Below, piece after piece: positions 1-15,067 of a DNA stretch of 64,000 bases; position 1 is the stretch's first letter; every line of letters begins with the position of its first letter. The notes under the pieces are model-generated. The model was not told the DNA's origin, ran no database searches, and saw only the letters and a program-made list of their open reading frames with translations. The position numbers and the translations under genes were made by a program. The DNA is from Desulfomonilia bacterium (lineage in GTDB: Bacteria > Desulfobacterota > Desulfomonilia > UBA1062). The stretch covers positions 149,341-213,340 of the forward strand of contig JBEKDT010000001.1 in NCBI GenBank assembly GCA_050014195.1, read 5' to 3'.

Positions 1-59
1 TGAAGCTGAAATACGTTACTATCAGGAATATTTATGTCTATATATCTATAACAGGGTAA

Positions 60-145
60 TGCCTTGCACTCAATATCCGGATATACTGCAATCGTGCATC
101 AAATATTGGATATGCTGCAAAAGTGCAGTATAGTAATTGTTAGGC
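60..145 (+). other. candidate integron attI site (direct repeats plus simple site ending GTTAGGC)
   Basis: Near-identical direct repeats atatccggatatactgcaa (73-91) and atattggatatgctgcaa (103-120), small inverted repeat ctgcaaaagtgcag (115-128), and a GTTRRRY core GTTAGGC at 139-145. No L''/L' boxes of the array attC family are present. The R'' of the first attC (GCCTAAC, ~1287) is the reverse complement of this core. Confidence 0.4.
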
Positions 146-208
146 TAAGAGGTAATATTTCAAAATGAGCTAGATAAAAAGCAACTTCTAATATGAATGG
201 AGTGATAA

Positions 209-1267
209 ATGAAAATTGAATTTATAAATCATAAATCCTGTATATTATTTGTCTTCATCGTAGCATGTCTTCTTTCACCTAGAATATCTCTGTCAGAATC
301 AGATCTTCCAGACGACAATCTAGCCTACCCGGTACTGTTAATAAGCAAGGAGGGAGGGACAGGAAGTGGCTTTTTCTATAATAAGGATGAAGCTATATAT
401 CTAATAACAGCAAGACACGTTCTATTCAATGAAACGTCTATACGTGTACCAGAAGCAGTTATTGTCCCGAAAAATCTAAGGTGTAAGTTATATTGTATAG
501 AGGATAAAGGGAAAAAAGATAAAAAGGAATTCATACTCACTTTCTATGGTGTCATGTTGGAGAGCGAAAAAAACGAACTTATTAAGGCGACTCCAAAGAC
601 TGATAACTTCAACTTCATTCCAGTTATTGAACGACTTTATAAAGAATCCCAAAAACTTAAACTGAGAAGTACTGAACTTACATTATTCTCATATGATAGA
701 AAGGTTAACAAAGGTGGAATAAACGAATTCGAAGTTCAACTGATGGATCTTTATAATAACGGTCAAATTAAATACCACCCAACACATGATGTTGCTTTTA
801 TTAGAATTGGAATCCCTAAAAAAGTAAAAGGCGAAGATATAATGAAATTGCAGAAAGGAGTAATAAAGAAACAAGGGACAGGGGTGGGTGGCTTAAGTAA
901 AGACAACTTCAAACTTTTTAAGGATGTTATCGTGGGCAACCAAGTGTTCGTTTTTGGTTATCCTACATCAATATCAGGAATAAACCCGTGGCTTGATACT
1001 AAATTACCTTTGCTCAGAAAAGGGACTATCGCTGGAAAAAATGAAAATCTTAATGCAATCATATTGGACTGTCCAGCCTTTCAAGGAAATAGTGGTGGAC
1101 TTGTAATAGAAGTTGAACAAGAATCAATTGATAAAATAAAATATAAAGCAATTGGTTTGATTACAAATTTAGTGCCTTATGCAGGTGCATGGATTCAGAA
1201 TTCGGGTTATTCCATCGTTGTCCCTATGGATTTCGTAGAGGAATTATTAAATGCACAATCTAAATAA
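209..1267 (+). CDS. secreted trypsin-like (S1 chymotrypsin-fold) serine protease; cassette 1, attI-proximal
   Basis: 352-aa ORF with an N-terminal hydrophobic signal-like segment. Catalytic motifs TARHV (His) and GNSGG (Ser; a GDSGG variant) are present. RBS GGAGTGA lies upstream of the ATG. The ORF is ~33% GC. Confidence 0.75.
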   Translation: MKIEFINHKSCILFVFIVACLLSPRISLSESDLPDDNLAYPVLLISKEGGTGSGFFYNKDEAIYLITARHVLFNETSIRVPEAVIVPKNLRCKLYCIEDKGKKDKKEFILTFYGVMLESEKNELIKATPKTDNFNFIPVIERLYKESQKLKLRSTELTLFSYDRKVNKGGINEFEVQLMDLYNNGQIKYHPTHDVAFIRIGIPKKVKGEDIMKLQKGVIKKQGTGVGGLSKDNFKLFKDVIVGNQVFVFGYPTSISGINPWLDTKLPLLRKGTIAGKNENLNAIILDCPAFQGNSGGLVIEVEQESIDKIKYKAIGLITNLVPYAGAWIQNSGYSIVVPMDFVEELLNAQSK

Positions 1268-1286
1268 CAATGTTTTGGCTATCATA

Positions 1287-1343
1287 GCCTAACCATCGCA
1301 TCCACCGGACGGCTAAAGCCGCCGGTGATGCACATCGTTCGCC
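1287..1343 (+). repeat. attC 1
   Basis: R'' GCCTAAC, L'' caccggacgg, L' gccggtgatgc, R' GTTCGCC. R'' equals the revcomp of GTTAGGC at 139-145. Confidence 0.8.
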
Positions 1344-1361
1344 AAATAATCTGAGATTAAA

Positions 1362-2423
1362 ATGAGTACGCCAATAATAACAACATCTGATTCAATTAAA
1401 ATTGCAAGAGGTGTATTCGAGAGATCAAAGTACGAGGTTACTGAAGAATGCATTATAGACCTTTCAAAAAATATAACACTAGTAGAAGAAAAAGGTTTAT
1501 CCAAGTTAAACAATAGGCTGATTGCAGGCGGTAGACATATCCAGGATACACTAGTCGAGCATAATTATGCTGCCACAATATTACCTATTCTTGGACCTGA
1601 GGCATCTATCGAATATGAACCCGAGGGTTTACATCGACCTCCAGACTTTAAAATAGTTAGGGAAGGCATTACTTATTGGATTCAAATAAAAAATTTATCA
1701 ATATTGGAAAGAGAGAATCGGCAAGATAAGATTCTCCAAGAAATTGAGAGACAGATAAGAGAAATCGAAGTCGGGATGTTCCTTGGATGCCAACTCAATG
1801 ATGACTTTTCTAGAGATGATATCGAATCACTTTTAACTTTTGTTAGGAGTATTATTAATGAAGCTAATATAGGGCAAGCGTACTTCTTTCCAAATGAGTC
1901 AACACCCAAAGCAAAAATAGAATTCTGGCTTCCAAATAAATTACAATTATCTCATCTCACCTTGGGCATATCCGGTGACATTGATATTGTTGAACAGACA
2001 GGGCTTGCTCAAGAACAAATAAAAAACAGTATCGTTAATGCAGCAGGTGCTTTTAAATGGATTTCTGATGAAAAAACTATCAATCTCATAGCCATGGACT
2101 GTGGCCGATATGATGATATTGATATTTGTGATGCATTATTTGGAACAGAATATGATGAAATATCTCAGAGCGGTAGACATTGTTGGTGTCGAAAAGAAAA
2201 TGGTTTATTTAAAAAATCCCCGTATGATGAAACAGTATTCGGTGTGATTTCACTTAGGAAAAAAGATAAGTGGGCCCCTATTATTAGCACATATACAATG
2301 TCCTTTTTCTTGAATGATACTTATAAAGATTCTCTTGATTGTGTAACGAGCCTTTTCCCTTTCGTGATAATTGTTCAATATAATATGAGACCCCCTATAG
2401 GCCATGCCAATTTCATAATCTAA
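1362..2423 (+). CDS. hypothetical protein (possible PD-(D/E)xK-like core EYEPEG..PDFKI..IQIK); cassette 2
   Basis: 353-aa ORF filling the cassette between attC1 and attC2. It is AT-rich like cassette 1. No recognisable family; the nuclease-like motif is a weak visual match only. Confidence 0.6.
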   Translation: MSTPIITTSDSIKIARGVFERSKYEVTEECIIDLSKNITLVEEKGLSKLNNRLIAGGRHIQDTLVEHNYAATILPILGPEASIEYEPEGLHRPPDFKIVREGITYWIQIKNLSILERENRQDKILQEIERQIREIEVGMFLGCQLNDDFSRDDIESLLTFVRSIINEANIGQAYFFPNESTPKAKIEFWLPNKLQLSHLTLGISGDIDIVEQTGLAQEQIKNSIVNAAGAFKWISDEKTINLIAMDCGRYDDIDICDALFGTEYDEISQSGRHCWCRKENGLFKKSPYDETVFGVISLRKKDKWAPIISTYTMSFFLNDTYKDSLDCVTSLFPFVIIVQYNMRPPIGHANFII

Positions 2424-2454
2424 AAAATGGAATAAGATATTGGGGGAGAATAAA

Positions 2455-2514
2455 GGCGAACAAATCATTTCAGCGGACGCGGCGGGGCCGCGCCGCTGAT
2501 GCCCGCCGTTCGGT
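2455..2514 (+). repeat. attC 2
   Basis: R'' GGCGAAC (revcomp of the upstream R' GTTCGCC), L'' cagcggacg, L' gccgctgatgc, R' GTTCGGT. Confidence 0.85.
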
Positions 2515-2522
2515 GACAAGAT

Positions 2523-3584
2523 ATGATGAAATTGATTGATCTAGGTTTTGATCCCTGGTTTGAAGCACATGTCGATGACATGCGCCGAGAGGATCAAGGA
2601 ATTGCACGTGTGTCAGCAGTTGACCGCAACTCGTACATTATCAGGAATGAGATCAGAGAGATCCCAGCTGAACTTGCAGGGAAGTTCTATTTCCATGTTG
2701 AGTCCTCGATTGAGCTGCCATGTGTCGGCGATTGGGTCACCGTGCAGTATCATAATGATGACACCTCGGCAATCATCCATGGGATTTTTCCACGAAGGAC
2801 GTTTTTACGCCGCAAACGTGCCGGCGTAGAAGTGGACTACCAGATGATTGCAGCCAACATTGACATCGCTTTCATTGTCCAGTCATGTCACTTTGACTTT
2901 AATCTACCTAGACTGAATCGGTATTTAGTAATGGCAGCTGACGGACATGTTGAGCCGATTGTCATTCTTGCCAAGACGGACTTGATCTCCCACGATGAGC
3001 TGCAACAGAAGCTTGCGGCTATTAGACAGGCTGGCATCACGACGAGAGTTATTGCTCTCAGTAACATAACCGGCTCCGGGTTTGACGAATTCCAGCAGGT
3101 ATTAATGTCGGGGCGCACATATTGCCTGCTCGGGTCATCCGGAGTCGGCAAGACTACACTGATCAACCATCTGATTGGACGAGATGATCTTGATACTAAA
3201 GCTGTCAGTGGAACAGGAGAAGGCACACACACAACAGCGCGTCGGCAACTCATTGTTCTTGATAAAGGCATGATGTTCATTGATACACCTGGAATGAGAG
3301 AATTAGGCCTTCTGGGCGCCAGTGAGGGAGTAAACAAAGGGTTTGAAGATATTATTGAGCTTTCCATGACTTGTCGCTATGCCGATTGCAGCCATACTCA
3401 GGAATCAGACTGCGCAGTTCTTACTGCAATTACAAACGGCGAGTTGAGTGAAGAGCGCTATTCTAGTTATTTGAAACTCAGGAAAGAGTCAGAGCACTAT
3501 GAGATGTCGTACTTGGACAAACGTAAAAAGGACAGGGCATTCGGACGCTTCGTTAAGACAGCAAAGAAGAATATGAAAAAATGA
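2523..3584 (+). CDS. RsgA/YjeQ-family circularly permuted ribosome-biogenesis GTPase paralog; cassette 3
   Basis: N-terminal OB-like segment, then G4 (LAKTDL; AKTD in place of NKxD), G1 (GSSGVGKTTLIN) and G3 (DTPG) in permuted order. C-terminal zinc-finger motif CRYADCSHTQESDC. Bounded by attC2 and attC3. Confidence 0.8.
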   Translation: MMKLIDLGFDPWFEAHVDDMRREDQGIARVSAVDRNSYIIRNEIREIPAELAGKFYFHVESSIELPCVGDWVTVQYHNDDTSAIIHGIFPRRTFLRRKRAGVEVDYQMIAANIDIAFIVQSCHFDFNLPRLNRYLVMAADGHVEPIVILAKTDLISHDELQQKLAAIRQAGITTRVIALSNITGSGFDEFQQVLMSGRTYCLLGSSGVGKTTLINHLIGRDDLDTKAVSGTGEGTHTTARRQLIVLDKGMMFIDTPGMRELGLLGASEGVNKGFEDIIELSMTCRYADCSHTQESDCAVLTAITNGELSEERYSSYLKLRKESEHYEMSYLDKRKKDRAFGRFVKTAKKNMKK

Positions 3585-3593
3585 ATGCCGTGC

Positions 3594-3652
3594 ACCGAAC
3601 AATCGGCTCCAGCGGACGCGGTGAAACGCGCCGCTGACCCATGCCGTTCGGC
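3594..3652 (+). repeat. attC 3
   Basis: R'' ACCGAAC (revcomp of GTTCGGT), L'' cagcggacg, L' gccgctgac, R' GTTCGGC. Confidence 0.85.
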
Positions 3653-3668
3653 AGGTGAGGCGCTTATA

Positions 3669-4640
3669 ATGGCACCACGCAAAGAAGACATCCCGGAATG
3701 GCGTCAGTTCGAGCAATTAGTGGCCAGAATCGAGGCTGATGCTGGTCCTCTCGGTTTGATCGTGACTTCTCCTGATCGCATAAAGTGCAGGACCACTGGA
3801 CGCTTACGCGAGGTCGATGCAAGTGTGCGAACACAGATAGGGACATCGAGCATTCTGATCACGATTGAATGCCGGAAACGTCGAGTAAAGCAAGACGTTA
3901 CTTGGATTGAGCAACTTTCGACCAAAAAACATGCGATCGGGGCTGCCCGCACTATTGCCGTTAGTTCCTCCGGGTTTTCTCAGGAAGCTGAAGCAGCGGC
4001 CCTCCAGCACGGCATAGATCTGCGACGATTATCCGATGTATCCGCCGCAGAGATAAACGAACTAATAAGGCTAGATTTCGTTTTATTTACACACAAAAGA
4101 TGCGCCCTGGCTCGTGTTGGCCTCCGACTTTTCCGGTCTTTGGACTGGACGGTGCCCGATCCAGAAAACGTAGACCTTATTTTACCGCCAAGCACGGACC
4201 CGTTTGCCACTATCTTCAGGAATACGGAGACAGGAGCGACTTGGTCGCTCAATGACCTATGGCTGCAATTGCAAGAAGTAACTAATCCGTTTGCCGATGT
4301 CGAGAAGGGCTGCGCTCCAGTTATCAAAACTGCTTGTTTTCCTTTTCCTGGCAATGTCATCGTGAACACTCCAGACGGGCAGAAAAAGATTGGAGATGTG
4401 TTGCTTAGCGTGGCGCTGTCGCTTGAAGTGGAGCAAGTTGATCTGGAATCCGCCAAGAAAGTTGAATATACGTCTCCAGATGGTGCCGCGATCCAACGAG
4501 TGGAGTTTGCCTCTCGTGAACCCGGCGCAGAGGATTGGCATCTTTCGCTACAGATTCCCAAGGATTCAGTGGATATAAGCCAGCTCAGAACAGGAGGGAA
4601 CTGGCCAGTAACAAAGCAAACTGATCAAAAGGGCCACTGA
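3669..4640 (+). CDS. Mrr-like restriction-endonuclease-fold (PD-(D/E)xK) protein with an uncharacterised C-terminal domain; cassette 4
   Basis: N-terminal motif W..FEQLVARI...G......SPD......T......D...R......ILITIECRKR resembles the Mrr_cat nuclease core. RBS GGTGAGG precedes the ATG at 3669. The track ORF start at 3585 lies inside attC3 and is rejected. Confidence 0.6.
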   Translation: MAPRKEDIPEWRQFEQLVARIEADAGPLGLIVTSPDRIKCRTTGRLREVDASVRTQIGTSSILITIECRKRRVKQDVTWIEQLSTKKHAIGAARTIAVSSSGFSQEAEAAALQHGIDLRRLSDVSAAEINELIRLDFVLFTHKRCALARVGLRLFRSLDWTVPDPENVDLILPPSTDPFATIFRNTETGATWSLNDLWLQLQEVTNPFADVEKGCAPVIKTACFPFPGNVIVNTPDGQKKIGDVLLSVALSLEVEQVDLESAKKVEYTSPDGAAIQRVEFASREPGAEDWHLSLQIPKDSVDISQLRTGGNWPVTKQTDQKGH

Positions 4641-4684
4641 GTCGGTGGGTTCAATCTGCCAACTGCGCGTGCTGATAGCGATAA

Positions 4685-4743
4685 GCCGAACCAGTAAATT
4701 CAGCGGACGCAAAAAGCCGCGCCGCTGATGCCCACCGTTCGGT
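4685..4743 (+). repeat. attC 4
   Basis: R'' GCCGAAC (revcomp of GTTCGGC), L'' cagcggacg, L' gccgctgatgc, R' GTTCGGT. Confidence 0.85.
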
Positions 4744-4764
4744 GTCTAAGGAGGAGGCGTAATA

Positions 4765-5013
4765 ATGAATGGGAATAAAGGTGACCACCCATTAACAGAT
4801 ATCCTTATCCATAATATTGAAGTCTATGGCAAAGAAGCAGATGATCTGATTCGTAAGATTAGTTCCTTATCAAGCAGGAGAGAACTAGATGAGTGGTGGG
4901 AAAAGGAAATTAACTGGTCATCAGATAAAACACTAGCCTTACAGAAATCTCAATTGAGATACGAAGAACTTCTTGATCGAGCAAGAAAAAGTGGATGGGA
5001 AATTGATGAGTAA
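4765..5013 (+). CDS. hypothetical 82-aa protein; cassette 5
   Basis: Strong RBS AAGGAGGAGG. The ORF fills the cassette between attC4 and attC5. Confidence 0.6.
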   Translation: MNGNKGDHPLTDILIHNIEVYGKEADDLIRKISSLSSRRELDEWWEKEINWSSDKTLALQKSQLRYEELLDRARKSGWEIDE

Positions 5014-5015
5014 TC

Positions 5016-5109
5016 ACCGAACAAGCAAATCCAGCGGACCACTGGGGCCGTTTGTCCTTGCTGATTCAACGCTCACCTGCCCCAGTGGCCGCTGATCCGC
5101 ACGTTAGCC
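5016..5109 (+). repeat. attC 5 (long variant, ~94 bp)
   Basis: R'' ACCGAAC, extended stem ccagcggaccactgggg / ccccagtggccgctgat, R' GTTAGCC. Confidence 0.8.
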
Positions 5110-5116
5110 AGGAGAA

Positions 5117-5998
5117 GTGATGAATTATTTCTCATACAATACTGATGGTGGGCAACGTAGGTTCGATGTCCTAATCAAAAAAGGACTAGCTGCAACTAGT
5201 GGAGATGAGAAGTTTGGTAAACAACTTGGCAAGCTTAATATAGATGACATTCTTCTCATGTATGAGGATGGATTAGGAATTGTTGCCATCGGAGAAGTTC
5301 AAGAAGAATGGGACGGGAAACCTTATAGTAAACCCATATACTATATTCCCGGTAAAGAGTTTCCCGAAGGTGCAAATGAATATAGAATAAAGGTCAAATG
5401 GTTTCTAAATATCTCTGATTCTCCATTGAGCGTTAAGGAACTAAAAGAGCGTATTGGTTACATTCCACGTGGTGCAGTAACACCATTCATTAAATGGAGG
5501 TATGAGATTGAAAAAATTATTGCTGAACTTAGAGCTCGCAACCCAGAAACTGTTCAAGATGCTATTGATGATCTTGAATCTCATAAAAGAGAGTTTAAGT
5601 TACTCGATAAAACTGAGCAAGAGTCAATTATCAAAAGCCGAATTGGCCAAGGGATATTTCGAGAAGAGCTTATCAAAATCTGGGGTAGCTGTTCTGTAAC
5701 CGGGCTAACCAATCTTTCTCTGTTGCGGGCTTCTCATATAAAACCATGGCGGGAGTGCTCTAATCAGGAACGCTTAGATCCGATGAACGGACTTTTACTG
5801 CATCCTACTTTGGATCATTTGTTTGATTCTGGATTTGTCACATTTGATGCTGATGGGAAAATCCTTATATCAAGGAAGTTATCGGAAAAAGATGTTGAGA
5901 TCCTGCATATTGACCAAAATAGTTATTTGAGGATAATGCCACGAAGGTTAAAGAACTACATGCAGTATCATCGAAAGAATGTTTTTAAACCTGGCTAA
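5117..5998 (+). CDS. HNH (HNH_2-type) endonuclease fused to an N-terminal EVE/PUA-like putative modified-base-binding domain; cassette 6
   Basis: C-terminal motif LLRASHIKPW...NGLLLHPTLDHLFDSGFVTF is typical of the HNH_2 nuclease family. The N-terminal ~140 aa (DDILLMYEDGLGIVAIGEV ... YRIKVKW) has an EVE-like pattern. RBS GGAGAAG. Confidence 0.65.
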   Translation: MMNYFSYNTDGGQRRFDVLIKKGLAATSGDEKFGKQLGKLNIDDILLMYEDGLGIVAIGEVQEEWDGKPYSKPIYYIPGKEFPEGANEYRIKVKWFLNISDSPLSVKELKERIGYIPRGAVTPFIKWRYEIEKIIAELRARNPETVQDAIDDLESHKREFKLLDKTEQESIIKSRIGQGIFREELIKIWGSCSVTGLTNLSLLRASHIKPWRECSNQERLDPMNGLLLHPTLDHLFDSGFVTFDADGKILISRKLSEKDVEILHIDQNSYLRIMPRRLKNYMQYHRKNVFKPG

Positions 5999-6049
5999 CC
6001 AGCCACTTCAGCCGACGGGCTACGCCCGCGGCTGACCGGCACGTTGGGC
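5993..6049 (+). repeat. attC 6
   Basis: R'' GGCTAAC (revcomp of GTTAGCC), L'' cagccgacgg, L' gcggctgac, R' GTTGGGC. Confidence 0.8.
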
Positions 6050-6101
6050 ATAGAATCTGCGGGGACCACCGTTTCCTCGCTTTTTCAAAGGAGAATTCAA
6101 T

Positions 6102-6416
6102 ATGCGTTGGAATCATTACGTCTCTTACTTTTTTGGCGGAGCCTTTCTCACAAATGCGATCCCGCATTTTGTGAGCGGCGTTACAGGGCACCCTTTCCAA
6201 AGCCCTTTTGCCTCTCCCCCGGGGCAAGGGCTCTCTTCCGCCGTGGTGAATGTGCTTTGGGGCTCGCTCAACCTTGTTATCGGCTACTTGCTCGTATGCC
6301 GCATTGGACAATTTGAGTTGCGTCGGACAAGGCATGTTCTCATTGCGGGATTGGGGGGCCTACTCATGGCCGTGATGCTTGCGCATGTATTTGGTCGCTT
6401 CTATGGGGGGCTCTGA
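6102..6416 (+). CDS. small integral membrane protein (104 aa); cassette 7
   Basis: Three hydrophobic segments. RBS AAAGGAGAA. Confidence 0.6.
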   Translation: MRWNHYVSYFFGGAFLTNAIPHFVSGVTGHPFQSPFASPPGQGLSSAVVNVLWGSLNLVIGYLLVCRIGQFELRRTRHVLIAGLGGLLMAVMLAHVFGRFYGGL

Positions 6417-6433
6417 AATATGGGAAACGATTT

Positions 6434-6496
6434 GCCCAACAATTCATTCCAGCGGACGGGCCACACGGTGGCCCGCCGCTGAATTTGTCGTTGGGC
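6434..6496 (+). repeat. attC 7
   Basis: R'' GCCCAAC (revcomp of GTTGGGC), L'' cagcggacgg, L' gccgctgaa, R' GTTGGGC. Confidence 0.85.
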
Positions 6497-6532
6497 ATAA
6501 TACGTAATTTATGATTCTTAGGGAGAACTATC

Positions 6533-7333
6533 ATGAAAGTTCTAGCGCTCAATGGAAGTCTTCGGGGTGACAGGGGAGCTACAGGTAAGATTCTTCAGAG
6601 TATGGGTGCGGGCGTCGAGAGGGCAGGTGGAATTTGGAATGTGGTTCATCTTTCGGAACTAAAGATTGAAACTTGCCGCGCATGCAATCACTGTCAGAGA
6701 ACAAAAACTTATAAATGTATCTTTGACGGTAAAGACGACGCCGAAGAGATCTTCAACAAGATGAGGGGTACGGATATTCTGATTTATGCATCTCCCGTTT
6801 ATGTGTTTGGTGTGTCAAGTCTTCTCAAACGTTTTCTTGAGAGAATTCATTCTCGCGCTCCTGTTGCGGAGATTCTATTAACGAAATCCGGATTATTCTT
6901 TCATGCCACAGATCAATCACTTTCAGGCAAACCTTTCATTTCCATAGTAGTGTGCGACAATATTGAAAATCTCACAGTTCGCAATACGAAAGAGTACTTC
7001 CGAATTTTTGGACGCTTCATGGACGCGCCACATGTGGCACATATGGAACGTCGGAGTGCGGCGGCATGGATGGCCGCACTGGAAGGAACCGGCAAACAGG
7101 CGAAAAATAATGCAGAGAACGTTCTGGCTGCCTATGTACGCGTGGGAGAGGAATTGGTGTTAAAAGGAAGCATCTCGAGAAAATCGAAGAAAATTACAGA
7201 GCGGCCTTTCATAAAAATTCCACTTCCGGTGCGTATGGGACGGCACATTCCAGCATTCAAACCTTTTATTGAAAAGGAAGTTCGCAGACGGTCGAGTAAA
7301 ATAAGCAGCATGATTGGAGTAAAAGGAGAGTAA
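6533..7333 (+). CDS. iron-sulfur flavoprotein (Isf-like, NADPH-dependent FMN reductase fold); cassette 8
   Basis: MKVLALNGSLRGD N-terminus of the flavodoxin-like reductase family, plus the compact Cys motif CRACNHCx7C. RBS AGGGAGAA. Confidence 0.65.
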   Translation: MKVLALNGSLRGDRGATGKILQSMGAGVERAGGIWNVVHLSELKIETCRACNHCQRTKTYKCIFDGKDDAEEIFNKMRGTDILIYASPVYVFGVSSLLKRFLERIHSRAPVAEILLTKSGLFFHATDQSLSGKPFISIVVCDNIENLTVRNTKEYFRIFGRFMDAPHVAHMERRSAAAWMAALEGTGKQAKNNAENVLAAYVRVGEELVLKGSISRKSKKITERPFIKIPLPVRMGRHIPAFKPFIEKEVRRRSSKISSMIGVKGE

Positions 7334-7358
7334 ATGTGGACGGTTCTACCAGTGGCTG

Positions 7359-7421
7359 GCCGAACCAGTCAATCTAGCTGACCCGGCGCAAGCGCCGGGC
7401 AGTTGATCTCCGCCGTTATGC
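7359..7421 (+). repeat. attC 8
   Basis: R'' GCCGAAC (one mismatch to revcomp of GTTGGGC), L'' tagctgacccggcgc, L' gcgccgggcagttgatc, R' GTTATGC. Confidence 0.75.
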
Positions 7422-7446
7422 ACCTCCAGTTTCAATATTTCGAGCA

Positions 7447-7475
7447 TTGTTAATAATGACAGTTAAGGCTATATT
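7447..7475 (+). promoter_or_regulatory. cassette-internal sigma70-like promoter for brnTA
   Basis: TTGTTA, 17-bp spacer, TATATT, located ~20 bp upstream of the BrnT start. Confidence 0.45.
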
Positions 7476-7494
7476 AAATGTGAAATGAGGAAGC

Positions 7495-7776
7495 ATGCTT
7501 ATTTTTGAGTGGGACCCAGAGAAAGCAAAAAGTAACTTAAAGAATCACAGGGTGTCCTTCGATGAAGCGAGTACTGTTTTCAGCGATACTATGTCTTTGA
7601 CAATTCATGATCCTCTCCATTCAGATGAAGAAGATAGATTTGTCATTATCGGGAATTCATACAAGAACCGTCTTGTACTGGTTGTTCATGTCGAGAGGGG
7701 CAACAGAATAAGGATTATCAACGCAAGGAAAGCGACAAGGAAGGAAAAGAAACAATATGAAGAGAATGAAAACTGA
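7495..7776 (+). CDS. brnT: BrnT-family (DUF497) type II toxin ribonuclease; cassette 9
   Basis: MLIFEWDPEKAKSNLKNHRVSFDEASTVF...RIINARKATRKEKK matches the BrnT signature. It overlaps the downstream antitoxin ORF. Confidence 0.8.
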   Translation: MLIFEWDPEKAKSNLKNHRVSFDEASTVFSDTMSLTIHDPLHSDEEDRFVIIGNSYKNRLVLVVHVERGNRIRIINARKATRKEKKQYEENEN

Positions 7777-7966
7777 TCCAGAGATGTTGGAAGAATATGA
7801 TTTCAGCAAAGGTATCAGGGGAAAATATGCACAAAAGTATTCAGAAGGAACAAACGTTGTTGTAATTGAACCTGATGTTTCAAAGTTTTTCCCTGATCAT
7901 GATTCTGTAAATCAAGCTCTCAGGTCTTTAGCTGACATCATCAAAGGGCAGAAAAAAACTGCATAA
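7757..7966 (+). CDS. brnA: BrnA-family antitoxin; cassette 9
   Basis: EYDFSKGIRGKYA motif of BrnA antitoxins. A 20-nt overlap with brnT gives the toxin-first operon typical of BrnTA. Confidence 0.7.
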   Translation: MKRMKTDPEMLEEYDFSKGIRGKYAQKYSEGTNVVVIEPDVSKFFPDHDSVNQALRSLADIIKGQKKTA

Positions 7967-8092
7967 CAAGCCAATGCACCGGACCGCAAACAGCTCGGGG
8001 GCATGCTTCCGGCCCTGCTCCGCCTTCAGTCCAGTGGTGCATTCTGGTTTGGTGCTCCGCTCCGTTTGCGGCAGGTGATCCGCACGTTGGGC
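7961..8092 (+). repeat. attC 9 (long variant, ~130 bp)
   Basis: R'' GCATAAC (revcomp of GTTATGC), L''-like ccggaccgcaaacag, L'-like ccgtttgcggcaggtgatccgc, R' GTTGGGC. Confidence 0.7.
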
Positions 8093-8110
8093 TCAACAGA
8101 GGATAATAAC

Positions 8111-8524
8111 ATGCTGAATAGATCTCTTATCATTGTGATATGTTTTTCATTGATTTCTTGTTCAAACCTTAGAGAAAATGAAAAGATCAATCAAAATAAT
8201 TATAAAAAAACTGATTCAGACGTGAAGCTTTTAGAGTTGTCAAAAGAGGCGTTAACAACATTTCTTAAAAGCCGTCTCACAGCATCTGGATGGACAATAA
8301 CAGTTAATCCTGACAAAAATATAGTTGAGACTAACTGGTATAGAGAACACAAAGGAGAGGTTGTTGTAAAATCTGAAATCAGGATTCATGAGGGACTTAT
8401 CCGTGTAGATGTATGGCAACGTGTTGGATTACTATTTACTTCTGATATTAAGAACGAAAGAACTAGATATTTTGAGTGGGCTATACAAAAACAAATAGAG
8501 AAAACACGTTCACAGTCTCAATAA
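8111..8524 (+). CDS. lipoprotein (138 aa); cassette 10
   Basis: Signal peptide with lipobox LISC. RBS GAGGA. The track start at 8003 lies inside attC9 and is rejected. Confidence 0.6.
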   Translation: MLNRSLIIVICFSLISCSNLRENEKINQNNYKKTDSDVKLLELSKEALTTFLKSRLTASGWTITVNPDKNIVETNWYREHKGEVVVKSEIRIHEGLIRVDVWQRVGLLFTSDIKNERTRYFEWAIQKQIEKTRSQSQ

Positions 8525-8526
8525 AA

Positions 8527-8583
8527 GCCCAACCATGGCATCCCCCGGACGGCTTACAGCCTCCGCTGATCCGCCCGTTATGC
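8527..8583 (+). repeat. attC 10
   Basis: R'' GCCCAAC (revcomp of GTTGGGC), L'' cccggacgg, L' ccgctgatccgc, R' GTTATGC. Confidence 0.85.
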
Positions 8584-8629
8584 AACGAAAGAAAAAGGCA
8601 TGTATCAGTAAATGAGGGTGGGGGTCATC

Positions 8630-9151
8630 ATGCAAAAAGAAGAAGATCACTCTGGAGAATTGGGCAAAAAATTTGCCGCTGTATGTGGCCTTTACTGTGA
8701 GGCGTGCTCATGGTTCATTGCCACCACTGAAGATCCTGAAAGGCTCAAAAGGCTTGCGGCACAATTGCATTTTTCGGAGGAAGAGAGCAAGTGCTATGGA
8801 TGCCGGTCGGACAAGAGGTTGCCTTATTGCGAGAAATGCAAGATGTTCGCTTGCGCAGCTGAACGAGGTATCGACTTTTGCAGCGAATGTGAAGAGTATC
8901 CCTGCGACGACCTAAAACAGTTTCAATCTGCAATGCCTCATCGGATCGAGCTTTGGGCCAATCTGGAACGAATCAAGTCTATTGGTTATAAACATTGGCT
9001 CAAGGAAATTCGGGAAAACTATGCCTGCCCACGGTGCCACATCATCAATTCCACCTACGACTTGAAATGTAGAAAGTGCGGCGAAGAGCCTAGCTGCAAT
9101 TACGTAGCCAAACACCAGCAGGTAATCGAGGAGTATTTGAAGAGTAGATGA
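8630..9151 (+). CDS. cysteine-rich DUF3795-like protein; cassette 11
   Basis: CGLYCEACSWF...CYGC...CEKCKMFACAAERGIDFCSECEEYPC pattern. The start may be 8612 or 8630. Confidence 0.6.
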   Translation: MQKEEDHSGELGKKFAAVCGLYCEACSWFIATTEDPERLKRLAAQLHFSEEESKCYGCRSDKRLPYCEKCKMFACAAERGIDFCSECEEYPCDDLKQFQSAMPHRIELWANLERIKSIGYKHWLKEIRENYACPRCHIINSTYDLKCRKCGEEPSCNYVAKHQQVIEEYLKSR

Positions 9152-9158
9152 TGGGGTC

Positions 9159-9256
9159 GCCGGGGTCTCAACATATGACAAATTTGTTGATTGTTGAGAC
9201 CCTGACCCCGGTGCTTCGCCCGACGTTTTGCCTGCCTGTGATTTGCGACGTTATGT
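9159..9256 (+). repeat. atypical recombination-site-like element (nested palindrome plus degenerate attC ending GTTATGT)
   Basis: Perfect nested palindrome ggggtctcaaca..acaaatttgt..tgttgagacccc (~9161-9213). It is followed by cgcccgacg / cctgtgatttgcgac (weak L''/L') and GTTATGT at 9250-9256. The expected R'' GCATAAC is absent. Confidence 0.4.
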
Positions 9257-9272
9257 GAAGGAGAATAAAAGA

Positions 9273-9692
9273 ATGAGAGATGCGAGCAAAACAATTGGCA
9301 ATCTGATCGAAAGAGCAAGCGTTTCTATTATCAGTTCCGTTGATGAAGACGGTTTTCCTAATTCAAAGGCAATGCTTCCACCGAGGAAAAGGGAAGGCAT
9401 AAAGCATATCTTCTTCACGACCAATACATCCTCAATGAGAGTAAGGCAATATCTCAATAACCCGAAAGCGTGCGTATATTTCTTTGATAATAGATTCTTC
9501 AAGGGCATTATGCTGAGGGGCACCATGGAAGTCCTGCATGATAGCGCATCTAAGGAAATGATCTGGAAGCATGGCGACGAAATGTATTATCCAAAGGGTG
9601 TAACTGATCCCGATTACTGCGTGCTCAGGTTCACTGCTCAAAGTGGAAGGTATTACAGCAATTTTAAATCTGAGAATTTTGAAGTTGAGTAG
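9273..9692 (+). CDS. pyridoxamine 5'-phosphate oxidase-like FMN-binding protein; cassette 12
   Basis: Split-barrel PNPOx-family pattern (SVDEDGFPNSKAM...ACVYFFD...MLRGTMEVL). RBS GAAGGAGAA. Confidence 0.6.
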   Translation: MRDASKTIGNLIERASVSIISSVDEDGFPNSKAMLPPRKREGIKHIFFTTNTSSMRVRQYLNNPKACVYFFDNRFFKGIMLRGTMEVLHDSASKEMIWKHGDEMYYPKGVTDPDYCVLRFTAQSGRYYSNFKSENFEVE

Positions 9693-9706
9693 AGACCCAA
9701 GCTATC

Positions 9707-9770
9707 ACATAACCAGCGCATCCAGGCAGACGCGTCGTGTCCGCCGCGCCGCTGATTCGCAATGTTCGGT
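9707..9770 (+). repeat. attC 12
   Basis: R'' ACATAAC (revcomp of GTTATGT at 9250; one mismatch to the revcomp of GTTATGC at 8577), L' gccgctgattcgc, R' GTTCGGT. Confidence 0.75.
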
Positions 9771-9904
9771 ACACTTGATTGGATCGTCATCGTGACAAGA
9801 GGGTGTTCTTTTGTTGCTGCATATCTGAGCGCTCATAGTTGTTTTCCGTTCGCTGCTTTTCAGGCGTACGGTCAGCCAATATAGAGAATGCTGGAGGATG
9901 AACC

Positions 9905-10198
9905 ATGAACGACAATTTCGAAAAGAGGCTTTGGGCCGCAGCGCTGGCAGGATGGTGGACCTTGCTGGTGGCCGCAGGGGTTCTGATGCTTCAGTGGATC
10001 GTCTACCTGCTGGTTATGTCCGGACGACCCATGTGGTTTCTTTCCCTCTGGGGGCCTGATGTCAGCTGGCATGACGTTCATAACATCTGGTTTCTGGGCT
10101 TAGGGTTCTTCAAGGTCTGCTTGCTACTTTTGGCGGTTGTGGTTCTCTGGCTTACCTTGTGGGCCAGGCGATTACGAAAAGGGGCTGGCAGTTCATGA
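9905..10198 (+). CDS. small membrane protein (97 aa); cassette 13
   Basis: Trp-rich hydrophobic helices. RBS GGAGGATGA. Preceded by a 135-nt untranslated leader. Confidence 0.55.
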   Translation: MNDNFEKRLWAAALAGWWTLLVAAGVLMLQWIVYLLVMSGRPMWFLSLWGPDVSWHDVHNIWFLGLGFFKVCLLLLAVVVLWLTLWARRLRKGAGSS

Positions 10199-10294
10199 AG
10201 TCTTGAATTCGCTCTCGCTCGCTTTTCCACAAACAGTCAGGTCGTCGCTGCGATCGCAATTAGAGAGCAAAGGACGGAGTTATCTCGTAAGTGC

Positions 10295-10314
10295 GCCCAA
10301 CTAGGGCGTTGGGT
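10295..10314 (+). repeat. minimal R''/R' inverted pair (possible attC remnant)
   Basis: GCCCAAC-tagggc-GTTGGGT with no L boxes. It sits between two ORFs that may belong to a single cassette. Confidence 0.3.
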
Positions 10315-10334
10315 CAAAGGAAGGAGATACAAGA

Positions 10335-10757
10335 ATGTTCAGAAGAATAGTGTGTTTTGCAGTCATTGGACTTGTCCTTGGTACTGCTGCTCTCATGGCT
10401 GACGAATCCGATAGGGGGAAGGCTGCAGTTGCTTCAGCTGAAGAATGGCTTGGAATTGTTGATGAAGGTAACTATATTGAGAGCTGGAAGGAATCGTCTG
10501 AATATTTTCAGCAAGCCATCAAACAGGATCAGTGGGAACAAGCAGTTCAGGCGGTACGGAAGCCCCTCGGCAAATTGGTTTCAAGGAAAGTGATGAGTGC
10601 CTCATACAGAACGTCTCTCCCGGGAGCACCCGATGGGCAGTATGTGGTAATCAAATTTAACACCTGGTTCGAGAATAAAAAATCAGCTATTGAGACAGTT
10701 ACTCCAAAGATGGACAAAGATGGGATGTGGAGAGTTTCCGGTTACTACATCAAATGA
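10335..10757 (+). CDS. secreted DUF4019-like protein; cassette 13/14
   Basis: Signal peptide, then EEWLGIVDEGNY..SW..S...FQ pattern. Strong RBS AAGGAAGGAGA. Confidence 0.55.
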   Translation: MFRRIVCFAVIGLVLGTAALMADESDRGKAAVASAEEWLGIVDEGNYIESWKESSEYFQQAIKQDQWEQAVQAVRKPLGKLVSRKVMSASYRTSLPGAPDGQYVVIKFNTWFENKKSAIETVTPKMDKDGMWRVSGYYIK

Positions 10758-10823
10758 AGACCAGACAATGGCATCCTCGCGGATGCGGGCTGCGCCAGCG
10801 CCGCTGATGCCTGGCTGTTCGAC
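10757..10823 (+). repeat. attC 14
   Basis: Degenerate R'' ACCAGAC (two mismatches to the revcomp of GTTCGGT at 9764), L'' catcctcgcggatgcggg, L' gcgccagcgccgctgatgc, R' GTTCGAC. Confidence 0.7.
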
Positions 10824-10831
10824 GGAGAGAA

Positions 10832-11500
10832 ATGAAGAAGAAAACATTGCTGAGTTGGAGTAGCGGGAAGGACAGCGCATGGGCGCTTCACCTGCTCCAA
10901 CAAGATCCGCAGATTGAGCTTCTCGGCATGTTTACTGTAATGAATCAAAAATACAGTCGTGTGTCGATGCACGCCACCCGGTTGGAGATGCTTCAGCGTC
11001 AAGCCGAGGCAGTAGGTCTGCCGATCCAAACGATCAGTCTTCCCGACCCGTGCACAAACGAGCAATACGACGCTATCATGCGACACTTCGTCACCGAGTC
11101 TGTCAACAAGGGGATTGAGTGCATGGCATTCGGAGATCTGTTCCTTGAGGACGTCCGAAAGTATCGGGAGAATCAACTGAAAGGGAGTGGGATCGATCCT
11201 CTTTTCCCGTTGTGGGGAATCCCCACGAGCGACCTGGCTGAGCAAATGTTGTCAGCAGGACTCGAAGCCTATGTCAGCAGTGTTGATCTCAAGAAATTGC
11301 CTTCGCGTTTTGCCGGACAAAAATGGTCAAGGGACTTGATTGTGGAATTTCCCAAGGATTGCGACCCATGTGGAGAGAACGGGGAAATCCACACGGTCGC
11401 CGTGGGCGGCCCGATGTTTCGGAAAACAGTCCTTGTCAAAGTCGGCGACGTGGTGAATCGAAAAGGATTTGCTTACGCTGACATCATTCCGATTAACTGA
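10832..11500 (+). CDS. PP-loop ATP pyrophosphatase of the MJ0570/Dph6-like family (ATP_bind_4); cassette 15
   Basis: N-terminal LLSWSSGKDS PP-loop. Length and architecture match diphthine-ammonia-ligase-like enzymes. Confidence 0.65.
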   Translation: MKKKTLLSWSSGKDSAWALHLLQQDPQIELLGMFTVMNQKYSRVSMHATRLEMLQRQAEAVGLPIQTISLPDPCTNEQYDAIMRHFVTESVNKGIECMAFGDLFLEDVRKYRENQLKGSGIDPLFPLWGIPTSDLAEQMLSAGLEAYVSSVDLKKLPSRFAGQKWSRDLIVEFPKDCDPCGENGEIHTVAVGGPMFRKTVLVKVGDVVNRKGFAYADIIPIN

Positions 11501-11507
11501 AACGACT

Positions 11508-11565
11508 GTCGAACCAAGGAGTGCAGGCGATGCGATACCCGCGAGCCTGACTCCTGCCGTTGGAG
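11508..11565 (+). repeat. attC 15
   Basis: R'' GTCGAAC (revcomp of GTTCGAC), L''-like gcaggcgatgcg, L' gcgagcctgactcc, R' GTTGGAG. Confidence 0.75.
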
Positions 11566-11572
11566 GTTTGCA

Positions 11573-12121
11573 ATGACCCAAGCATTGTTACTCATAGACA
11601 TTCAGAACGATTACTTCCCTGGCGGGGCAATGGAACTAGTGGGAAGTTCTCCTGCTGCGGCGCAGGCCGGGAAACTACTTCAGGCGTTCAGACAAAAAGC
11701 GCTGAGCGTTATCCACATCCAACACATCTCGACAAGACCAGGAGCGACCTTCTTTTTGCCGAATACCGCTGGGGTACAAATTCACGAGAGCGTAGCTCCC
11801 AACAGTGGCGAAACGGTCTTTCAGAAACACTACCCGAACAGCTTTCGTGAAACACGTCTGCTTGAGCACCTTCGTGAGAATCAAATCTCGCAGCTTGTGA
11901 TCGCAGGGATGATGACCCATATGTGCATTGACACTACCTCACGTGCTGCCACCGACCTTGGCTTCCCGTGCGTTCTGGCTCATGACGCATGCGCTACAAG
12001 AGCTCTGTCGTTTAATGGCGCTACTGTTTCTGCTCAGAGCGTACAAACAGCATTCCTCGCAGCCCTTAATGGCCTGTTTGCCGAAGTGCTGTCAGTGGAG
12101 GAAATATGCACCAACCTCTAA
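11573..12121 (+). CDS. isochorismatase-family cysteine hydrolase; cassette 16
   Basis: ALLLIDIQNDYF N-terminus, and a catalytic Cys in MMTHMCIDTT. Confidence 0.75.
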   Translation: MTQALLLIDIQNDYFPGGAMELVGSSPAAAQAGKLLQAFRQKALSVIHIQHISTRPGATFFLPNTAGVQIHESVAPNSGETVFQKHYPNSFRETRLLEHLRENQISQLVIAGMMTHMCIDTTSRAATDLGFPCVLAHDACATRALSFNGATVSAQSVQTAFLAALNGLFAEVLSVEEICTNL

Positions 12122-12178
12122 CGAGCTGATCCGGCAGACCGGGGCTAAGCCCCGCGCCGCTGATACCTGCCGTGAGAG
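12116..12178 (+). repeat. attC 16 (mutated R' box GTGAGAG)
   Basis: R'' CTCTAAC, L'' cagaccgggg, L' ccccgcgccgctgatacc. The R' reads cGTGAGAG, whereas GTTAGAG is expected from the next cassette's R'' CTCTAAC. Confidence 0.7.
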
Positions 12179-12190
12179 GGCAAGGACCCT

Positions 12191-12988
12191 ATGCAACCAG
12201 TGCAACAGAAATGGAATGCTGAGGATTACGCGAAGAATTCTTCGGCACAGCTACAGTGGGCGCAGGAGCTTATTTCAAAACTCTTCTTGCAGGGTTGCGA
12301 ATCTGTGCTTGATATCGGATGCGGAGATGGGAAGATCAGCGCCCAACTTGCGCTGGCTGCCAAGAACGGAAACGTGCTGGGCATTGATCTATCTGAAGAC
12401 ATGATTCGGCTTGCCTCAGAGCAGTTTCCTTCAGCGAAATACCCCAACCTGTCTTTCTTGCGTATGGACGCAACAGGCATTCGCCTTTCTGAGAGATTCG
12501 ACGTCGCATTCTCAAACGCCGCCCTTCATTGGGTGAAAAACCATATTGCAGTTCTTCGAGGCGTGCATGCCTGCCTCAAGTCCGGTGGCAAGATATTGTT
12601 TCAGATGGGCGGCCGCGGAAACGCAACTGAGGTTTTTGGCGCCATTGAGAAAGTTTTACGGCACCCTCGGTGGCGGCGGTACTATAAAGACTTCACACCA
12701 CCCTACCACTTTTATGGACCGGAAGAATATGAAGCCTGGCTATTGGAAAGCGGTTTTCGCTCGGTACGTGTTGAACTCGTGCCAAAAGATATGCAGCATG
12801 GTGCGGAGGGGTTTAAGGGTTGGCTACGGACAACTTGGTTCCCCTATACCGACCGCTTGCCGGTCGAACTGCGCGATGCCTTTCTTGCGGAAGTGGTCGA
12901 GACTTATACGGCGGTAAATCCGTTTGACGCTCTCGGCCATACACACGTCAAAATGGTCCGTTTGGAGGTCGAGGCGTATGCCCTCTAA
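12191..12988 (+). CDS. trans-aconitate methyltransferase (Tam)-like SAM-dependent methyltransferase; cassette 17
   Basis: W.AEDY...S..Q..WA N-terminus, SAM motif LDIGCGDG, and Tam-like length and C-terminal region. Confidence 0.65.
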   Translation: MQPVQQKWNAEDYAKNSSAQLQWAQELISKLFLQGCESVLDIGCGDGKISAQLALAAKNGNVLGIDLSEDMIRLASEQFPSAKYPNLSFLRMDATGIRLSERFDVAFSNAALHWVKNHIAVLRGVHACLKSGGKILFQMGGRGNATEVFGAIEKVLRHPRWRRYYKDFTPPYHFYGPEEYEAWLLESGFRSVRVELVPKDMQHGAEGFKGWLRTTWFPYTDRLPVELRDAFLAEVVETYTAVNPFDALGHTHVKMVRLEVEAYAL

Positions 12989-13040
12989 CAATTCGCTCAA
13001 CGCGGACGTGCAAAAGCGCCGGTTAGCTCAAACGTTATGT
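12983..13040 (+). repeat. attC 17
   Basis: R'' CTCTAAC, L'' cgcggacg, L' caaaagcgccgg, R' GTTATGT. Confidence 0.7.
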
Positions 13041-13059
13041 GGCAAATGGGAGAAGACAA

Positions 13060-13743
13060 ATGGCTTACACTTTGGAAAAAGTAGTTCCTTGGGGACGATC
13101 TTTCGACGAATATTTGGCAATGTTTGCATTGTCGGAAGAAGACCTTAGAAAGCGGTTACTAGGATGTGGAGACGGTCCCGCAAGCTTTAATTGTATGATG
13201 AAACGTCGTGGAGGCCATGTAGTTTCTGTCGATCCGATTTACACTTTCAGTGCCGGTGAAATAAGAAGTCGGATAGATGAAACATATGAAGAGGTTATGG
13301 AACAAGCTAGAAAAAACAAACATGAGTTCGTGTGGAGACATATCTCATCAGTTGATGAACTCGGCAAAGTTCGTATGTCTGCTATGAACGACTTTTTGTC
13401 TGATTATGCAGTAGGTTTAAAAGAAGGTCGTTATGTAGACGCGAGTTTGCCTACGCTTCCATTCTCAGATCGAGAATTTGACATTGCTTTATGTTCGCAC
13501 TTTCTCTTTCTTTACAGCGAGCACCTTTCAGAAGATTTTCATATCCAGTCAATTGAAGAACTCTGCCGAGTTGCATCTGAAGTAAGGATATTCCCTCTGT
13601 TGGAGTTGGGAGCCAAAGAATCAAGACATCTCAAGATAGTCGTGGATAGACTTGAAAAAGGTGGTTTTGTTGTCGATATGAAGAAAGTGCCTTATGAGTT
13701 TCAAAAAGGTGGAAACGAAATGTTGAGGGTTACAGCCACATAA
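13060..13743 (+). CDS. class I SAM-dependent methyltransferase; cassette 18
   Basis: LGCGDGPASFN motif I and acidic motif II. RBS GGGAGAAG before the ATG at 13060. Confidence 0.6.
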   Translation: MAYTLEKVVPWGRSFDEYLAMFALSEEDLRKRLLGCGDGPASFNCMMKRRGGHVVSVDPIYTFSAGEIRSRIDETYEEVMEQARKNKHEFVWRHISSVDELGKVRMSAMNDFLSDYAVGLKEGRYVDASLPTLPFSDREFDIALCSHFLFLYSEHLSEDFHIQSIEELCRVASEVRIFPLLELGAKESRHLKIVVDRLEKGGFVVDMKKVPYEFQKGGNEMLRVTAT

Positions 13744-13807
13744 CAAATCAATGCACCTGAGAGCAAATCGCTGTGCGATTTCCGGCAAGTGATTTCTGCC
13801 GTTGGAG
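13738..13807 (+). repeat. attC 18
   Basis: R'' ACATAAC (revcomp of GTTATGT), stem gagcaaatcgc / gcgatttc, R' GTTGGAG. Confidence 0.75.
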
Positions 13808-13824
13808 GTCCGTTGGAGATAACA

Positions 13825-14397: not shown

Positions 14398-14411
14398 AAT
14401 GGGAGAGAATC

Positions 14412-14472
14412 TCTCCAACAAACGAAGCACCGGACGGGGCAAGCGCCAGGCCGATGATCTCCGTCGTTATGC
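14412..14472 (+). repeat. attC 19
   Basis: R'' CTCCAAC (revcomp of GTTGGAG), L'' caccggacgg, L' gccgatgatc, R' GTTATGC. Confidence 0.85.
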
Positions 14473-14503
14473 GCCAGTATTAGTAGAATATAGGTGATAG
14501 CAA

Positions 14504-14989: not shown

Positions 14990-15049
14990 CAAGGGCATCC
15001 AGGCGGAAGCGGGCTGCCCAGCGCCGCCGCTGATGCACACCGTTATCTC
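14984..15049 (+). repeat. attC 20 (R' box GTTATCT)
   Basis: R'' GCATAAC (revcomp of GTTATGC), L'' ccaggcggaagcggg, L' gccgccgctgatgc, R' GTTATCT. Confidence 0.8.
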
Positions 15050-15067
15050 CCAATATTCAATCCCTGC

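Follow-up and report, generated by a model that had tools for sequence, protein, structure and literature searches.

A probable attI site of a chromosomal integron family heads a cassette array without an integrase gene in a Desulfomonilia bacterium

The attI site has been identified for only a handful of integron classes and cannot be recognized by software (Cury et al., 2016, PMC4889954). For this reason, it is usually undecidable whether a cassette array that lacks an integrase gene (a CALIN) is a dead remnant or a live acquisition site. The 64,000-nucleotide stretch of Desulfomonilia DNA analyzed here (hereafter the window) raises this question at its left edge, where the sequence at 60–145 (GCCTTGCACTCAATATCCGGATATACTGCAATCGTGCATCAAATATTGGATATGCTGCAAAAGTGCAGTATAGTAATTGTTAGGC, plus strand) directly precedes the first cassette of a long array. 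A preliminary description had regarded this site as an attI, with the integrase gene intI located divergently just left of the window, and had named a CALIN as the alternative.

The cassette array is located at 140–16212 on the plus strand and includes about 20 attC sites, all on that strand, as determined by a covariance model, a pattern-and-fold scan, and the sequence itself. The covariance model was built from 11 attC sites of the array (about 67% identical to each other), and its matches span 1287–16206. Consecutive R' and R'' boxes complement each other, as they should in a series of cassettes. Cassette 1 (140–1343, plus strand) consists of an ORF at 209–1267, encoding a trypsin-like protein of 352 aa, and attC1 at 1287–1343. 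Cassette 2 encodes a 353-aa unknown protein, and attC2 is located at 2455–2514. These two cassettes have the array's own G+C-rich attC type, and the region that contains them (1–2500) has a G+C content of about 35%, compared with 44–55% in the rest of the array and the chromosome. PADLOC analysis of cassettes 1–4 and 6 produced weak or generic HNH matches only, including a weak match of cassette 1 to PDC-S45 (E = 2e-7). Toxin–antitoxin cassettes, which are typical of large sedentary integrons, are found at 7495–7966 (BrnT-type, based on Pfam) and 15116–15680 (a MazF/PemK-like pair recognized by eye). In the last attC (16160–16212, plus strand), the R'', L'', and L' boxes are intact, but G|AAAATA takes the place of the expected G|TTRRRY in the R' box; the covariance model matches this site only partially (16172–16206). 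The array therefore has no canonical attI-derived junction at its distal end. Near the other end of the window, the region at 59306–63944 has a low G+C content (35%) and encodes glycosyltransferases, a Wzy-type O-antigen ligase/polymerase, and a heptosyltransferase; it looks like a surface-polysaccharide island that is unrelated to the integron.

The site in front of cassette 1 ends in the core GTTAGGC (R box; 139–145, plus strand), with the crossover between G139 and T140. This core had been described as exactly complemented by the R'' box of attC1, and indeed attC1 opens with GCCTAAC (1287–1293), the reverse complement of GTTAGGC. The two direct repeats reported upstream of the core were also confirmed. 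A repeat finder identified 17 matches in 20 positions between 79–98 and 108–127, in direct orientation with a spacing of 29 nt. A repeat of this quality or better was reached in 4 of 2000 dinucleotide-preserving shuffles of bases 1–208 and in none of the other 613 of the 614 overlapping 208-nt windows into which the 64 kb was divided. Moreover, the degenerate motif GATATRCTGCAANNGTGCA has exactly two occurrences in the 64 kb (80–98 and 109–127), compared with an expectation of 0.01. The observation of direct repeats together with a core is thus real, and a chance effect is ruled out. Tandem Repeats Finder did not report this repeat. Based on the repeat and motif searches and on conservation across the family described below, direct repeat 1 (DR1; GATATACTGCAATCGTGCA) is placed at 80–98 and direct repeat 2 (DR2; GATATGCTGCAAAAGTGCA) at 109–127, both on the plus strand. 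The repeats had previously been placed at 73–91 and 103–120, which corresponds to the DR1/DR2 unit aligned with a 1-nt gap. In the window lineage, the full repeat unit is about 28 nt (71–98 and 100–127).

The site also has structure that was absent from the preliminary description. A perfect 12-bp palindrome, ATATCCGGATAT (73–84), was read from the sequence and overlaps the start of DR1; ATATCYGGATAT is kept in the family alignment. A 9-bp inverted repeat, TATGCTGCA-AAAG-TGCAGTATA (111–132), joins DR2 to the core-proximal 9-mer just before the crossover. It was flagged as a stem-loop and is a perfect 9-bp palindrome in most family members. Neither 80–98 nor 109–127 contains a GTTRRRY-like or GTT core heptamer on either strand. 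The 12 nt left of the crossover, GTATAGTAATTG (128–139, plus strand), are the most widely conserved part of the site and form the probable integrase-binding left arm of the simple site. A promoter-like sequence, TGGATA-16-TATAGT (107–134, plus strand; 9 of 12 matches), reads into cassette 1 and is a weak candidate for Pc; a promoter scan did not find this match in L082, a family member that is linked to intI. Further left, ATAACAGGGTAAT at 48–60 equals 13 nt of the I-SceI recognition site; other family members have CAGTATAAT at this position, and the likeness is regarded as a coincidence.

The DNA left of the window could be inspected in two 97.8-kb contigs (L001 and L002), which extend the window leftwards by 9792 bases and are 100% identical to it; the exact cassette 1 protein is recorded in 72 blocks of the collection. 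The genes in this flank, all on the minus strand, encode a 155-aa rubrerythrin-like protein (Rbr), an M48 peptidase, a GAF protein, GAPDH, and CarB, and the rubrerythrin-like gene ends 454 nt from the crossover. The expected divergent intI is not there: among the genes of these 10 kb, which are housekeeping genes, no tyrosine recombinase or intI remnant was found. Similarly, tBLASTn searches with IntI1 and four IntI-like proteins found nothing in the 64-kb window or the 10-kb left flank of L001. The IntI1 query does match the intI remnants of other loci, and one of the four IntI-like queries passes the NCBIfam integron-integrase cut-off. Pfam searches of ten recombinase-sized ORFs of the window identified no recombinases, but metabolic, glycosyltransferase, envelope, and similar genes. 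The locus thus has neither an adjacent, usually divergent intI nor the combination of attC sites with an intI carrying the IntI-specific extra domain that makes a complete integron. Because no intI is present in the 10-kb left flank or the 64-kb window, the array, with its approximately 20 attC sites, is a CALIN by the IntegronFinder definition, yet one that keeps its attI. This outcome corresponds to the alternative that had been named for the case of no integrase within about 1.5 kb upstream.

Homologs of the rubrerythrin-like neighbor are encoded at 45 genome loci, and the Rbr–M48–GAF–GAPDH–carB synteny is kept in L005–L016. None of these 45 loci provides an empty or intI-bearing version of the site. 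Their array-side DNA is unrelated and contains no array proteins, IntI, or attI module, and when the left flanks were searched with a relaxed HMM for a decayed second copy of the attI, no significant match was obtained. Two copies of a short repeat (CACGAAGAGCACGAAGGACACGAAG...) are present in the flank (L001:9519–9587 and L001:2068–2137; 81% identity). In the related locus L057, a 151-bp insertion beside a repeat of this type (alignment columns 167–317) bears its inverted copy. Judging from these sequences, it looks like a small mobile or hairpin-forming repeat of the Rbr–attI intergenic region.

Strong support for an attI comes from the recurrence of the site elsewhere. A metagenome scan with a 20-mer left half-site returned 21 loci. 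The left half-site and accessory region together form an attI module of about 105 nt (32–139, plus strand), which recurs in these 21 loci and in one Desulfomonilia MAG (L057), and the similarity ends in every case exactly at G|TT (139|140), beyond which the cassette differs. The metagenome loci and the window/L057 locus represent 13 unrelated left-flank groups. Among these 13 contexts, with 19 non-redundant copies, at least 14 different first cassettes are found behind the module. Pairwise identity averages 0.72 immediately left of the searched pattern and drops to 0.28, the random level, from +7 rightwards. Blocks with at least 85% column identity are located at 64–77, 79–92, 94–97, 109–113, and 115–139, of which the last 20 nt were fixed by the search pattern. 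All 19 distinct junction cores begin with GTT, and most fit GTTRRRY. In L059, L060/L071, L065, L068, L074, and L077, the first downstream attC has an R'' box that is exactly reverse-complementary to the junction core; in five more loci, the match extends to 5–6 of 7 positions. With the attC model, attC sites were found right of the junction in most loci, and only one weak match (17 bits, L064) was found to the left. A profile HMM of the 19 non-redundant copies has a single match in the window (32–139, E = 1e-28) and no other match there or in the 45 relatives' loci. A BLAST search of 30–145 against 72,556 plasmid records also returned no matches.

Within this family, DR1 and DR2 start 29 nt apart in the window and in L057 and L076, 30 nt apart in L077, and 34 nt apart in most other members, and the inter-repeat spacer varies in both sequence and length. 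The 5-nt difference between 29 and 34 nt is half a helical turn, which is odd for a fixed protein-binding geometry. Two more distant attI sites, L085/L086 and L087, were found through intI fragments rather than by a DNA pattern. Because they keep GTATAGTAATTG beside the crossover and have only a single diverged ATATCCTG...GCA element, we consider the simple site to span 128–145 and the repeats to be an accessory region specific to the lineage. L073 has only one repeat, the hybrid GCACTCAATATCC-CGATAAACTGCAAAAGTGCA (oriented, about −60 to −20), as though recombination between DR1 and DR2 had removed the intervening DNA; a GTTAGGC junction follows nonetheless. The 30-nt variant, close to the type of the window, sits at the unrelated locus L077, and L084 is a mosaic that has the intI-side sequence of L070 and the core-side variant and first cassette of L074. 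Since attI variants do not track flank phylogeny, homologous exchange does take place between attI copies, and it could also move leading cassettes. In L078 (oriented, crossover at 745), the junction reads GTT|GAAC... and the place of the cassette is occupied by a 304-aa tyrosine recombinase followed by an IS91-like transposase of the zinc-finger, rolling-circle type (ORFs 842–1753 and 1735–2997); an apparent IntI1 hit right of this crossover corresponds to this recombinase and was rejected as intI. L067 has the same left flank as L078 and a normal cassette.

Several family members are adjacent to intI, in all cases as N-terminal remnants (L068, L070/L081–L084, L080, L085/L086, and L087). In L068, L070 (identical to L082), and L081–L084, a divergent ORF begins some 160 nt to the left of G|TT; this arrangement is also seen in L080, the contig of which is cut before the crossover. 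These ORFs are 41–43% identical to residues 13–86 of IntI1. For example, the minus-strand ORF of L068 reads MPEIKLVDKIRNVIRMKHYSLSTEKTYIGWIKRYLVFHHMRHPREMG... and is 43% identical to residues 13–68, and the corresponding gene in L070 is truncated after about 80 residues. The fragments match TIGR02249 (integron integrase) with E-values of 1e-45 to 5e-16 and match no Xer models, except for archaeal XerA with the longest fragment (P0125, 3e-10). They reach residue 142 or so at most, short of the IntI-specific domain near patch III. All intI copies observed next to attI sites of this family are truncated, by an IS110-family element, a frameshift, or a contig end. In L085/L086, the gene is frameshifted with a stop near residue 142, and in L068, it is cut by the contig end. 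In L087 (10001–12020) and L080 (122–1803), a gene for an IS110-family transposase directly follows the truncated intI; such a gene is also listed for L081–L084. The fragments P0122 and P0129 differ by about 25% in their N-terminal parts and share an identical C-terminal junk peptide (QKSGVRIQNRLRVTCQ), implying that one element end was inserted at one intI codon in diverged lineages. This pattern points to an IS with site specificity for integron integrase genes. The searches made did not recover an intact integrase belonging to this attI family: two word-index searches retrieved only fragments of 56–160 aa, and an exhaustive representative search retrieved full-length IntI-like proteins at 57% identity or less. 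Since a PNPOx-like cassette of the window (9415–9756) is 90% identical to the second cassette of L070 (oriented, about 2100–2440), the window array and the intI-remnant-headed array of L070 share a common cassette pool.

When the integrase gene was lost relative to the acquisition of cassettes can be assessed at the window's own chromosomal locus. The Desulfomonilia MAG L057 (GCA_052144175.1), reached through the search for homologs of the rubrerythrin-like neighbor, has a flank that is 96% identical to that of the window over 7.6 kb. In the intergenic region, L057 and the window can be aligned across both repeats as far as ...GTGCAGTATAGTAATTG; beyond G|TT, L057 continues as GTTATGC... into a different cassette, the attC of which opens with GCATAAC (complement seen by eye). 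The loci L076 and L069/L072 represent the same chromosomal locus at 93–94% identity, each with yet another first cassette. Among these four lineages, the Rbr/M48/GAF/GAPDH/carB flank is 93–96% identical at the nucleotide level and the intergenic region is intI-less. L057, L076, and L069/L072 all depart from the window exactly after G|TT, and their right-hand sequences have no similarity to the window array. Given that these four lineages share an intI-less junction but differ in their leading cassettes, the turnover of cassettes postdates the loss of intI. L069/L072 carry the 34-nt-spacing variant at this locus; they have no rubrerythrin-like gene there, and the M48 start lies 620 nt from the crossover, compared with 1049 nt in L001. 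When only the window clade is considered, conservation of the module does not exceed that of the adjoining intergenic DNA (94–95%). L001–L004 are 100% identical to the window, and the population is clonal over the first 11 kb in all samples read, with no ongoing turnover seen in this region. Gene calls within the array differ between contigs, and given this identity, these differences were rejected as sequence polymorphism.

The window site is almost certainly an attI, because one crossover is used repeatedly, the left arm is conserved, and a divergent integrase is present in what would be the ancestral arrangement. It is located 5' of the first cassette, has its crossover in a GTTRRRY core, is distinct from attC, and belongs to a module that is conserved while the cassettes differ. 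The proposal of an attI primary site is borne out by a module that heads different cassettes in 13 left contexts and ends at G|TT, with divergent intI remnants beside some copies. This attI family, found in Desulfomonilia-like bacteria, is previously undescribed. In a wider interpretation, which we consider probable, 32–145 is the attI of a Desulfomonilia-like chromosomal integron family that has lost intI at this locus and in which cassette turnover has continued in trans. Cassettes would enter when a folded attC recombines with the double-stranded core at G139|T140. In this process, GTATAGTAATTG and GTTRRRY would constitute the simple site, and the two upstream direct repeats would be accessory elements, most likely extra integrase-binding sites by analogy with attI1. 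At the window locus, complete loss of the integrase gene would have left an array of about 20 cassettes headed by an orphan attI. This site most likely kept receiving or losing cassettes afterwards, via an integron integrase encoded elsewhere.

Other explanations of the site differ greatly in plausibility. It is hardly credible that the site is a diverged, AT-rich attC of a preceding cassette, with the window beginning within a longer array. An R''-like CTATAAC at 46–52, 86 nt ahead of GTTAGGC, and a possible short TGCACT/AGTGCA pairing are compatible with such an attC; however, the covariance model found no match in 1–208 of the window or in the 10-kb left flank, even at E ≤ 10 with filters off. 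In addition, single-strand folds of 40–150 have z-scores of −1.0 to −2.0, compared with −3.6 and −4.3 for real attC sites, and both 40–150 and 60–145 were rejected as attC based on the weak z-scores obtained when both strands were folded. These results agree with the earlier observation that no array-type attC boxes precede cassette 1. The 10 kb leftwards also contains no cassettes or attC, and its conserved housekeeping genes are syntenic in related genomes. It is very improbable, too, that a cassette once hit a chance secondary site in the genome (attG-type, G|WT) and that no dedicated attI exists. Integrases do insert cassettes at many GWT sites outside att sites, which has been proposed as an origin of CALINs (10.1101/2022.09.11.507474), and the window site has no intI nearby. 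Nevertheless, a one-off site would be unique to its locus, whereas the 105-nt module is found ahead of at least 14 first cassettes in 13 unrelated contexts, and some of its copies adjoin integrase remnants in the canonical divergent arrangement. A more serious alternative, possible although not the one that we favor, concerns the repeats: they may be regulatory or structural (an operator for a dimeric regulator, a part of a cassette promoter, or an insulating hairpin), with the recombination site limited to the last 20 nt or so (GTATAGTAATTG|TTRRRY). Such a role would suit the perfect 12-bp palindrome and the 9-bp inverted repeat (TATACTGCA/TGCAGTATA, 4-nt spacer), and DR1 and DR2 have no GTTRRRY-like core, unlike DR1 (GTTACGC) and DR2 (GTTATGG) of attI1 (PMC3146285). 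It is also consistent with the single diverged element of L085 and L087, with the junction still headed by L073 minus one repeat, and with the attIA of V. cholerae, which functions without such repeats (PMC8946536). On the other hand, the repeats are kept in intI-less contexts, where a regulator of intI would lack a target, and the sole promoter-like match (107–134) is weak and not conserved in the family. The precedent of attI1, in which accessory repeats at such a position favor attI × attC recombination (PMC8946536), further argues for accessory elements of the attI.

Regarding the activity of the site, an integron integrase acting in trans is the simplest mechanism and the one toward which we lean, because the four lineages share the intI-less junction yet carry different leading cassettes; mobilization of CALINs in trans is generally assumed (10.1101/2025.06.18.660453). 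The main competing explanation, which we find rather doubtful, is that the attI is a relic, inactive since the loss of intI, and that the sister lineages acquired their cassettes from other arrays by homologous recombination or allelic replacement. The attI variants are indeed shuffled relative to flank phylogeny (the 34-nt type in L069/L072 and the 30-nt type in the unrelated L077), L084 joins an intI side like that of L070 to the core-side variant and first cassette seen in L074, samples of the window population do not differ over 11 kb, and the family searches found no intact intI. However, homologous replacement requires a second crossover rightwards, whereas the compared arrays share no cassettes over 1–4 kb and their attC sites are short and about 67% identical. 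Even then, new attI–cassette junctions at exactly G|TT would still need an integrase somewhere. Moreover, Xanthomonas lineages with one intI lesion usually keep identical arrays (Gillings 2005, as summarized in 10.1101/2025.06.18.660453), which is not the case here. The left ends of the module show a regularity of their own. In nine of the 12 intI-less contexts, similarity to the intI-linked reference ends within a 15-nt window, −102 to −116 from the crossover, beside an AT-rich GTTATTTAT / GATTTA motif and about 45–55 nt short of the intI start codon. In L064/L077, the attI-core-like GTAATTG abuts the left end of the module. Random intI deletions should not cluster this tightly; either a minimal functional unit has been selected for, or the attI and its array have moved as one unit by means of a second crossover at the left end. 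Together with the G|AAAATA of the last attC in the window, the clustered left ends and GTAATTG would fit a scenario in which the attI and its cassettes are excised as a giant cassette and reinserted elsewhere, with a distant integrase serving many scattered arrays; we regard this scenario as unlikely.

Compared with known systems, the window family shares with attI1 of class 1 integrons the position at the array head, the G|TT crossover in GTTRRRY, two direct repeats within about 60 nt upstream, and, in its intI-bearing relatives, a divergent intI start about 160 nt away. It differs from attI1 in having no sequence similarity, in repeats that are 19–20 nt long, partly palindromic, and spaced by 29–34 nt within the family, and in the absence of intI at the window locus. 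The repeats also do not contain the GTTAYGS heptamer of attI1, in which both DR1 (GTTACGC) and DR2 (GTTATGG) are core-like (PMC3146285; PMC8946536). As a CALIN (Cury et al., 2016, PMC4889954), the array is ordinary in its roughly 20 attC sites and in the absence of intI over 10 kb to one side and 48 kb to the other, and it agrees with the 95% of CALINs that have no intI pseudogene nearby (PMC4889954). What sets it apart from the usual CALIN is that a bona fide attI can be recognized in front of the first cassette; because most integrons have no known attI, retention of the site in CALINs is normally not assessable (PMC4889954). The ilvD-linked integrons of Xanthomonas with decayed intI are similar in that they are chromosomal, occupy a fixed locus in related lineages, and have a lost or inactive intI. 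In Xanthomonas, strains with a common intI lesion usually have identical arrays (Gillings 2005, as summarized in 10.1101/2025.06.18.660453), whereas the lineages at the window locus have a complete intI deletion in common and entirely different leading cassettes. The attIA of V. cholerae likewise heads a large sedentary chromosomal array with homogeneous attC sites and toxin–antitoxin cassettes, but has no direct repeats (PMC8946536) and adjoins a functional intIA. Finally, attG sites (10.1101/2022.09.11.507474) resemble the window site as double-stranded targets of attC away from the integrase gene; they have a GWT consensus only and are locus-specific, in contrast to a 105-nt module conserved in many contexts.

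Taken together, these findings define an attI purely by comparison, as a site that heads arrays at 13 loci, nearly all of which are integrase-less. It is a second natural attI with accessory direct repeats, unrelated in sequence to attI1, and could serve for testing the function of such repeats. At the window locus, turnover of the leading cassettes has continued after the loss of the integrase. If the responsible integrase is indeed encoded elsewhere, some CALINs would be working parts of a distributed integron rather than wreckage.
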